NCBI GenBank assembly: GCA_963804425.1
Contig: CAWDQF010000003.1
Span: forward strand, 134,722-198,721
DNA: 64,000 nt
Direction of reading: 5' to 3'
DNA from: an uncultured Verrucomicrobiae bacterium
GTDB lineage: Bacteria; Verrucomicrobiota; Verrucomicrobiia; Chthoniobacterales; JAFAMB01
Shown: in pieces, positions 24,410 through 25,471 of the stretch
How positions within the stretch are numbered: the stretch's first letter is position 1
Layout of the letters: the number at the start of each line of letters is the position of its first letter
Translations under genes and position numbers: made by a program
Notes under the pieces: generated by a model
Seen by the model: only the letters and a program-made list of their open reading frames with translations
Told to the model about the DNA's origin: nothing
Databases searched by the model: none

Positions 24410-24538
24410 TAGAGAGACCCGCATTATTCGCTTGTCCATGATTTCACGACTGACCATGTCCAGTCGGCGGATGCGCAATCTCACCGGATGGGGTCCAACG
24501 GCAGACCTGGGTGCTACAAAACCGCGGGGGTAACAATC

Positions 24539-25471
24539 ATGCGCGATGTAGCTGAAAACTCGATGAGCAACATTGATTGCGAGCCCCAGGGGTTCTCCTA
24601 TCTCAGTAGGCTCGCTCCAACTCTGGAAAACAAGATTCTTGGCCAGAAGGGTGCCATCTCTCGGGTGACACGAGCGGTACAAGCGGCTGAACTCGGGTTA
24701 AACGAGCAGGGTTGCAGACCTAAGGCAAGTTTCTTGTTCCTCGGCCCGACTGGCGTTGGAAAAACAGAAACGGCCAAATGCTTTTCCGAATACGTATTTG
24801 GATCCCACAATGCGCTGGAAATGGTTTTCATGAACGAATACTCAGCGGATAGTCGTTTTCCGGAATTCTTAGAACGCGCCGAAGCCGCAGTCCGTCGACA
24901 CCCAAATGGGACGACATTGCTCTTTGACGAAATTGAAAAAGCGCATCCGAGACTGATCGATATTTTTTTATCCCTGTTGGAGGAAGGGATCTTGACAACC
25001 CTAACCGGAGATCGCGTCGCGATCGGGCGATTTTATCTGGTCATGACTAGCAATCTTGGCAGCGGTGACCTGGCCAAGATGGAAAGCGCACCATATGCGA
25101 CTATGGAAAGAGTTGCGTTGGATGTAGCCAGTGAATCCCTACGACCCGAGCTTTTTGCACGCATCACGGAAAGGATCGTTTTTAGACCGCTCGATCTTGA
25201 AACTCAAAAAGCGATTCTTACTTCGCTGATTAGGAAAAAACTTCAAGTGCTCTCGCAATTCTTTGGGCGGCCGTTAACCATTGATGCAGGTCCAGTGATG
25301 GCGTTTCTGCTCCGGGCAGGATACAACAAGGCCCAGGGTGCACGCATGCTGCGACAGGAAGTGGATCGGCAAATGAACTCCGCAAGCTTAGTTTGGGCGT
25401 TAAACAATGAATCTCCAAAACACGGAATATTTTTCTATGACGCGACGGCTGGTGGTCTGATCCTCCGATAG
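24539..25471 (+). CDS. stand-alone ClpA/ClpB D2-type AAA+ ATPase
   Basis: ILGQKGAISRVTRAV...RPKASFLFLGPTGVGKTETAK (Walker A), LLFDEIEKAHP (Walker B), MTSNLGS (sensor-1 region), GARMLRQ (D2-small/sensor-2 region). No N-domain, D1 or middle domain. Confidence 0.85.
   Translation: MRDVAENSMSNIDCEPQGFSYLSRLAPTLENKILGQKGAISRVTRAVQAAELGLNEQGCRPKASFLFLGPTGVGKTETAKCFSEYVFGSHNALEMVFMNEYSADSRFPEFLERAEAAVRRHPNGTTLLFDEIEKAHPRLIDIFLSLLEEGILTTLTGDRVAIGRFYLVMTSNLGSGDLAKMESAPYATMERVALDVASESLRPELFARITERIVFRPLDLETQKAILTSLIRKKLQVLSQFFGRPLTIDAGPVMAFLLRAGYNKAQGARMLRQEVDRQMNSASLVWALNNESPKHGIFFYDATAGGLILR

Follow-up and report, generated by a model that had tools for sequence, protein, structure and literature searches.

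The window examined here, a 64,000-nt stretch of contig CAWDQF010000003.1 (positions 134,722 to 198,721) from an uncultured Verrucomicrobiae bacterium, contains the genes of a type IV secretion system (T4SS) followed by a gene for a stand-alone ClpB-D2-type AAA+ ATPase, hereafter the D2 ATPase. This protein represents a previously uncurated AAA+ family and is a constant, previously undescribed companion of a Verrucomicrobiota T4SS/conjugation machine, with strict two-way gene linkage to one class of T4SS. Its sequence and gene context indicate that it is very probably a dedicated T4SS component, and that it probably belongs, as a cytoplasmic accessory ATPase, to a T4SS class that is distinct and F-like, where it may assemble or gate the machine without threading polypeptides.

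A single, complete D2 module

24539..25471, + strand: stand-alone ClpB-D2-type AAA+ ATPase, 310 aa, with a large AAA_2 domain and a D2-small domain

An earlier note on this DNA had assigned positions 24410-25471 to the gene; the end stands, but that start takes in a 129-nt spacer, the upstream gene ending at 24409 and the D2 ATPase gene running from 24539. The open reading frame (ORF) counted from its first ATG is longer (24488..25471, + strand, 327 aa); the database version of the protein (P0001, 310 aa) begins at the ATG at 24539, which is preceded by a Shine-Dalgarno-like run (GGGGG/T).

In Pfam the protein matches AAA_2 (E = 6e-26) and, below threshold, ClpB_D2-small. It covers positions 556-824 of the 853 in the NCBIfam ClpB model, which is D2 only, and falls far short of the cut-off of that model (150 bits vs 1232) as it does for ClpA (129 vs 993) and TssH/ClpV (113 vs 885); ClpG and ClpK scores are also below the ClpB score, and the resulting ranking of closest families (ClpB > ClpA > TssH) is one of hidden Markov model scores only. 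A phmmer search of the PDB aligns residues 22-282 with residues 559-828 of E. coli ClpB at ~30-33% identity. The AlphaFold2 model, built from a 20-sequence alignment, has a mean confidence (pLDDT) of 91.5, and its top Foldseek matches are ClpC/ClpB D2 structures with TM scores of 0.8-0.84. The D2 ATPase thus consists solely of a complete D2 module with its large and small sub-domains: the NCBIfam and PDB alignments cover ClpB D2 only and leave no N-domain, D1 or middle domain, in keeping with what the earlier note had read from the sequence. The 120 closest homologues are each listed at 245-358 aa, so a second AAA+ module cannot fit in any of them. The D2 ATPase sequence has no signal peptide or membrane segment, the Pfam search gave no T2SSE (PF00437) match and no Torsin match at E <= 0.01, and neither Pfam nor NCBIfam holds a specific family for it.

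Among the closest relatives of the family that are not stand-alone proteins are P0124, P0128 and P0138 (1018-1309 aa), which contain a tandem array of three D2-like modules, every one of them having a Walker A, a Walker B and GAR; none of these proteins has a GYVG motif.

Intact catalytic motifs and a missing pore loop

The four motifs quoted in the earlier note (GPTGVGKT, LLFDEIEKAHP, MTSNLGS and GARMLRQ) can all be read in the translation. In an alignment of 20 family members, reaching down to 32% identity and with the ClpB alignment as reference, the Walker A GPTGVGKT, Walker B D130/E131, sensor-1 TSN, sensor-2 GAR and R208, which lies opposite the ClpB arginine finger R756, are all invariant. 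Judged by this alignment, the D2 ATPase retains every residue needed for ATP binding, hydrolysis and inter-subunit catalysis. Because an invariant arginine finger implies catalysis between subunits, and hence an oligomeric ring, the protein most likely works as a ring oligomer.

What sets the module apart lies between the Walker motifs, which are 53 residues apart compared with 64 in ClpB. The 11 residues by which it is shorter correspond to the pore-loop-1 segment with GYVG, in place of which the D2 ATPase carries the stretch SRFPEFLERAEAAVRR; the earlier note had described a shorter, unrelated stretch where GAPPGYVGY is usual, and pore loop 1 is indeed gone. In the AlphaFold2 model strand 93-97 passes straight to helix 104-120 with no protruding loop. 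The pore-loop motif G[YFW][VIL]G occurs in none of the 120 closest homologues. A further 98 more distant stand-alone relatives have a shortened loop (GTLG in 44, GLLG in 27, GTLA in 10), with Thr, Leu or another non-aromatic residue at the pore-loop Tyr position in 93/98, no recognisable loop in 4/98 and Phe in 1/98. The segment after sensor-1, TSNLGSGDLAKMESAPYATMERVALDVASESLRPE, reads without an IGF/IGL ClpP-docking loop. That the aromatic pore loop is gone speaks against unfolding by the classical threading route, and we infer that, unlike ClpB and ClpV, the D2 ATPase does not unfold polypeptides by threading them.

Linkage to one class of T4SS

That the surrounding locus encodes a T4SS follows from the presence of a VirB4-family ATPase, a TrbI/VirB10 core component and a coupling protein. 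The association of this system with the D2 ATPase holds up across relatives: of the stand-alone homologues, 12 have flanks that can be read (36-80% identity), and every one of these adjoins VirB4, VirB2-like, TrbI or coupling-protein genes, as against none of 143 long canonical Clp loci and none of 2 frame-shifted ones (12/12 vs 0/145, Fisher p = 3e-18). These Clp loci come from two large collection scans, one of genome contigs and one of metagenome contigs, in which the generic FDEIEKAH pattern dominated and most hits were full-length ClpB/ClpC loci; only L003-L005 and L092-L094 were relevant to the family, and the remaining Clp loci served as a negative control. L018 and L042, candidates for stand-alone genes without a T4SS, were ruled out by their ORF maps, which show frame-shifted full-length Clp genes. 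L087 and L094 were left out as too short for core T4SS genes; the former has a downstream neighbour in common with L085 and L086, and the latter starts inside the ATPase gene. The linkage also holds in the converse direction, in that all three loci picked by way of VirB4 alone (41%, 60% and 44% identity) carry a 305-312 aa AAA_2 gene. The condition under which the earlier note would have given up the link, with homologues common away from any T4SS and related T4SS loci devoid of the ATPase, was put to the test by these comparisons and did not refute it in either direction.

In the closest homologues (L001, L002, L003 and L092; 66-80% identity) the same operon is followed by the D2 ATPase gene. 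This order, from VirB4 to TrbI, a ~215-aa lipoprotein and then the ATPase (arrangement A), is found in these four loci and in L005, L085, L086 and L088. The link to the T4SS is kept where the ATPase is only 37% (L088) or 36% identical (L005, a metagenome-assembled genome of Akkermansia muciniphila). In L085 (51% identity) the ATPase gene is in mid-operon, overlapping its upstream gene, with the coupling protein three genes downstream; in L086 (46%) a coupling protein and a TrwC relaxase are nearby, and in L091 (37%) the coupling-protein gene comes directly after that of the ATPase. Arrangement B has the gene divergent from a VirB2-like/VirB3-like/VirB4 operon (L090, L093 and L172 of Phragmitibacter flavus, GCA_005780165.1), and on the short contig L004 it is divergent from a VirB2-like gene, the sole T4SS gene visible. 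The position at the end of the T4SS operon noted earlier is therefore correct for the window but not general, the gene being mid-operon or divergent in relatives.

Two copies of this T4SS class, L001 and L174, are present in GCA_963731325.1 (one 982-kb contig), with VirB4 proteins 77% and 44% identical to that of the window, and the stand-alone D2 ATPase is kept in both. The L174 copy is flanked by TraX, zeta toxin, KfrB, SLT and a coupling protein and looks like a mobile element; these genes, and the TrwC relaxase of L086, mark such loci as real conjugative systems.

The gene lies on the same strand as the T4SS genes, 129 nt past the 219-aa lipoprotein gene (earlier given as about 130 nt), and a consensus scan of this spacer found no sigma-70-like or terminator-like site, although such a scan carries little weight in a verrucomicrobial genome. 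At the corresponding junction the distance is -4 nt in L001, L085 and L173 and -8 nt in L086, and it ranges from +12 to +132 nt among L088, L002 and L174. Co-transcription with the operon in the window is unproven, with indirect support from the 4-8 nt start/stop overlaps in relatives.

The earlier note had also proposed that the gene stands where VirB11 would be expected and could supply a missing third ATPase activity, and here we are not convinced. VirB11 is present in only 19% of T4SS outside MPF-T, one of the mating-pair formation (MPF) classes (PMC4027160), so that nothing need be missing and the argument from a VirB11 slot is weak; a coupling-protein ATPase is moreover encoded at 33633-35489. 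No T2SSE/VirB11 gene occurs within 10 kb in any of the 8 annotated related loci.

Distribution and relation to known systems

All named sources of matches are Verrucomicrobiota (Verrucomicrobiales, Akkermansiaceae, Haloferula, Phragmitibacter, Chthoniobacteraceae), and carriers of the family include Akkermansia as well as cultured Phragmitibacter and Haloferula. A search of PLSDB proteins with the D2 ATPase returned only ClpK and generic Clp matches at <40% identity. The earlier author knew of no Hsp100-type T4SS component, and we likewise found no description of a Clp-like or Hsp100-type one in the literature searched, T4SS reviews or curated families; a 2025 review of T4SS nomenclature mentions no AAA+, Clp or Verrucomicrobia (PMC12857230).

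The best match in both sequence and fold is the second nucleotide-binding domain (D2/NBD2) of ClpB with its D2-small domain. The two share Walker A/B, sensor-1, the arginine finger and the sensor-2 GAR, and neither has the ClpP-binding IGF/IGL loop; unlike ClpB, which is encoded by a heat-shock gene, the D2 ATPase is a single 310-aa module with an 11-residue deletion removing GYVG and is encoded inside T4SS loci. Relative to class I Clp/Hsp100 proteins in general, it has the D2 fold, D2-small and the catalytic motifs, but not the two tandem AAA+ modules and N-domain, and the aromatic pore-loop-1 GYVG of D2 is deleted; the IG(F/L) ClpP-docking loop of ClpA, ClpC and ClpX is absent.

Among secretion-associated ATPases it resembles ClpV/TssH of type VI secretion systems (T6SS) as an Hsp100-derived protein recruited as a dedicated accessory of a secretion machine. 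ClpV, however, threads and unfolds with two rings, binds the sheath through its N-domain and is encoded in a T6SS gene neighbourhood, whereas the D2 ATPase has one module, no N-domain and no aromatic pore loop, and its neighbours are T4SS genes. With VirB11/TrbB/DotB it shares the character of a soluble cytoplasmic ATPase encoded with T4SS genes, and may share an analogous role as a hexameric switch at the machine's base; VirB11 belongs to the T2SSE/PF00437 fold family, to which the fold of the D2 ATPase is unrelated. EccA of type VII secretion is a cytosolic, classic AAA+ ATPase of the CbxX type with an N-terminal tetratricopeptide-repeat domain, and a conserved accessory. Both proteins are thus secretion-system accessory AAA+ ATPases, of different AAA+ clades and for different machines.

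Torsins are single-module AAA+ proteins of the eukaryotic endoplasmic reticulum and nuclear envelope, related to the D2 of Clp/Hsp100. Their pore loops have no aromatic residues, and remodelling rather than threading is their presumed activity; they carry a signal peptide, have no arginine finger and need LAP1/LULL1. The D2 ATPase is likewise a D2-like module without an aromatic pore loop, but unlike torsins it keeps the arginine finger, and it has neither a signal peptide nor a Pfam Torsin match. The match to DolB of the Dodola system is partial, not full-length. By the defining features of each family, as far as these can be read from sequence, the D2 ATPase is not ClpB, ClpA/C, ClpV, VirB11, Torsin or DolB.

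Proposed role and alternatives

We take the D2 ATPase to have arisen from the D2 module of the ClpB-type Hsp100s and propose that it may form a cytoplasmic ring serving the T4SS, docking on a partner such as the hexameric VirB4 or the coupling-protein ATPase. An ATP-driven conformational change of this ring would bring about the assembly, gating or resetting of the machine's inner-membrane portion, so that an unrelated fold would fill a VirB11-like switch role. Since the Hsp100 element for gripping and threading is lacking, an assembly, gating or reset factor is likelier than an unfoldase. We hold the specific picture of a non-threading switch tentatively, giving it something just short of an even chance.

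Several observations weigh against this proposal. Isolated ClpB D2 fragments reportedly oligomerise poorly, and the short aliphatic loop kept by distant family members could still grip substrate weakly. The 15 contexts examined are few, 12 of them having been found by way of the D2 ATPase itself. Divergent transcription in arrangement B means that the gene is not always in the MPF operon, and the 129-nt gap in the window leaves room for a promoter of its own. A single related system, much more distant than the others, has no D2 ATPase homologue: the Opitutaceae TAV5 plasmid CP007054.1 (L089), which was the best of only three plasmids of the Planctomycetes-Verrucomicrobia-Chlamydiae group found in a VirB4 search of plasmids, and which has a VirB4 of 27% identity across 96% of its length.

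The same plasmid carries a gene for a PilT-family ATPase followed by one for an MshL-type secretin, which points to a pilus module rather than to VirB11.

Three other explanations were considered. The D2 ATPase might be a single-ring Hsp100 derivative that unfolds relaxases or effectors, or frees them from chaperones, before transfer, much as the earlier note had suggested in speaking of substrate unfolding. T4SS protein substrates must be unfolded, the protein has Hsp100 ancestry and intact ATPase motifs, and its gene is often near that of the coupling protein (it adjoins it in L091, and lies at a distance of three genes in L085 and of ~1.6 kb in L002). Yet threading by Hsp100 proteins depends on an aromatic pore loop, and it is just this stretch that has been replaced: its Tyr is deleted in 120/120 close homologues and non-aromatic in nearly all of the wider family, the modelled strand 93-97 running into helix 104-120 leaves no protruding loop, a substrate-binding N-domain is lacking, and the gene is kept in chromosomal loci, with no relaxase found among the large ORFs of the window. 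On balance we consider such an unfoldase improbable. A ClpV-like recycler, which would disassemble a polymer of pilin, pilus or core subunits, or a spent complex, after firing or mating, would have a precedent in the T6SS, where ClpV is an Hsp100 recycler, and the locus does encode a VirB2-like pilin, with the pilin acetylase TraX in L174. ClpV threads, however, and does so with both rings and a sheath-recognising N-domain, all three of which are missing here; the score with the TssH model is 113 bits for a cut-off of 885, and the pilin and most core subunits are periplasmic or membrane proteins, out of keeping with an ATPase that has no signal peptide or membrane segment. We regard this explanation as very unlikely.

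It is most doubtful of all that the gene is a travelling cargo or regulator, such as a stress-chaperone fragment, a Dodola-type defence ATPase or an anti-defence gene, rather than a part of the secretion machine. PADLOC does report partial matches to DolB (58 bits, residues 24-176 only) and PDC-M37B, which shows that unrelated settings harbour stand-alone Clp-like ATPases of their own, and the divergent transcription of arrangement B and the 129-nt gap would both suit a passenger gene. Against this, the D2 ATPase gene always adjoins MPF genes despite rearrangements, overlaps them start to stop in four loci and retains 69% identity in vertically inherited chromosomal loci, while canonical Clp genes never show T4SS linkage; there is also no DolA-like partner, the upstream neighbour having no PADLOC match and the downstream neighbour being a glyoxalase-family protein by Pfam.

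On the current view, T4SS are powered by three types of ATPase, VirB4, the coupling protein and sometimes VirB11, and this picture would become wider if a fourth type, of Hsp100 lineage, were constantly present. If the proposal of a non-threading accessory ATPase is true, it would provide a natural prokaryotic case of a Clp-derived AAA+ protein that lacks the threading loop and keeps all catalytic residues, and so would bear on how AAA+ rings act without translocation, which is the Torsin problem. With carriers that include Akkermansia and cultured Phragmitibacter and Haloferula, the idea can be tested at the bench, and it flags a poorly known conjugation/secretion system in a phylum abundant in soil, water and gut.

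The T4SS operon

The genes upstream of the D2 ATPase are as follows.

14631..14936, + strand: putative VirB2/TrbC-like pilin, 101 aa (weak Pfam TrbC match, E = 0.006)
14965..15303, + strand: 112-aa protein, its gene directly upstream of and overlapping VirB4; VirB3-like role by position only
15300..18149, + strand: VirB4/TraC-like ATPase, 949 aa (Pfam P-loop_TraG)
18146..18508, + strand: predicted lipoprotein of the T4SS operon, 120 aa (gene call, conservation in relatives)
18538..19341, + strand: T4SS-operon protein, 267 aa (gene call, conservation in relatives)
19349..20695, + strand: fast-evolving T4SS-operon protein of unknown family, 448 aa (gene call, conservation)
20709..21530, + strand: T4SS-operon protein of unknown family, 273 aa (gene call, conservation)
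21527..22612, + strand: secreted T4SS-operon protein of unknown family, 361 aa; VirB9-like role by position only
22605..23747, + strand: TrbI/VirB10-like protein, 380 aa (Pfam TrbI, E = 2e-11)
23750..24409, + strand: predicted lipoprotein, 219 aa, with LLAC lipobox and coiled-coil C-terminal part
24410..24538, + strand: 129-nt spacer between the lipoprotein gene and the D2 ATPase gene

Homologues of the putative pilin adjoin VirB4 in L001, L002, L004, L090, L092 and L093. The VirB4-like protein matches the NCBIfam TraC-F-type (E = 4e-22) and VirB4_CagE (8.5e-15) models, both below their cut-offs, and has no PDB sequence match at E <= 1e-3; relatives of it show N-terminal matches to TraC_F_IV (PF11130). 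Together these results suggest that it belongs to a deep, F-like but separate MPF lineage. Further along the operon, a 263-aa Phragmitibacter protein in the same position as the 267-aa protein has a weak match to PF07996 ('T4SS'), the likeness of the two being one of position only, and the 361-aa protein is co-conserved in 7 related loci at 21-72% identity. The TrbI/VirB10-like gene is kept in all arrangement-A loci, and the 219-aa lipoprotein gene is the one that usually precedes the D2 ATPase, with homologues there in L001, L002, L003, L005, L088 and L092.

The window differs from the public record of the same contig (L083, ERZ25039470 contig_11864) by a 1-nt indel at ~18490-18518, at the end of or just past the 120-aa lipoprotein gene, and by a further mismatch near 18629.

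Downstream genes and chromosomal setting

The D2 ATPase gene is followed by genes for a glyoxalase-family protein and an AI-2E family transporter, and then by these features, with a RecQ gene on the - strand between the PilT cluster and the coupling protein.

27645-31077: cluster of a DUF4388/PatA_N + FGE-sulfatase protein, a Ras-like small GTPase, a prepilin and PilT
29630-30025: prepilin-type gene, 131 aa
29977-31077: PilT-family ATPase (T2SSE), adjoining the prepilin gene
33633..35489, - strand: type IV coupling protein (VirD4/TraG-like ATPase), 618 aa (Pfam TrwB_AAD_bind, TraG-D_C)
36246..36980, + strand: Rep3-type winged-helix protein, 244 aa, beside the coupling protein (Pfam Rep3_N, Rep3_C)

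No other T2SSE gene occurs in the window, and the PilT-family gene was weighed as a candidate for the 'real' VirB11 and ruled out: it scores 282 bits as PilT vs 57 bits as VirB11, adjoins a prepilin gene, and is absent from L001, L002 and the mobile-element-like loci. A homologous PilT gene lies a few kb past the T4SS in L003 and L092.

The window is chromosomal: it is part of a 2.43-Mb contig and carries the dcw cluster (55-63 kb). Its ORFs of at least 150 aa include no relaxase, which a conjugative system requires. The T4SS, coupling protein and Rep3 genes sit between nadC and folC/accD, and in L002 they occupy the same site, where the coupling protein, Rep3, FolC and AccD come after the D2 ATPase as in the window. 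The coupling protein lies ~8 kb downstream of the D2 ATPase gene in the window and ~1.6 kb past it in L002, again with Rep3 beside it; the window stretch at 25.5-33.6 kb is therefore variable. Between window and L002, identity is 78% for AccD and 54% for FolC, 80% for VirB4, 68% for TrbI, 69% for the D2 ATPase, 68% for the coupling protein and 83% for Rep3; most T4SS components fall at 61-83%, and two fast-evolving genes at 32% and 49%. The T4SS identities are in line with those of AccD and FolC, and the chromosomal site is shared, which argues that, in the lineage of the window and L002, the T4SS and D2 ATPase are inherited vertically under purifying selection, and the window T4SS looks like a vertically inherited, possibly exapted one.

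A broader conjecture, which we consider unlikely as a whole, is that these loci make up an unrecognised T4SS class, so far confined to Verrucomicrobiota, whose signature would be an ATPase of a fourth kind, a pore-loop-less, Torsin-like Clp-D2 ring with a non-threading role in gating or assembling the machine, and that in one lineage the whole apparatus may have become a vertically inherited chromosomal organelle serving something other than plasmid transfer. The organelle part of it draws on the divergence from L002, which matches that of housekeeping genes, and on the lack of a relaxase among the large ORFs of the window.

A 349-aa ORF with an rve/rve_3 integrase core (44341-45390), probably an insertion sequence, lies ~9 kb from the coupling protein.

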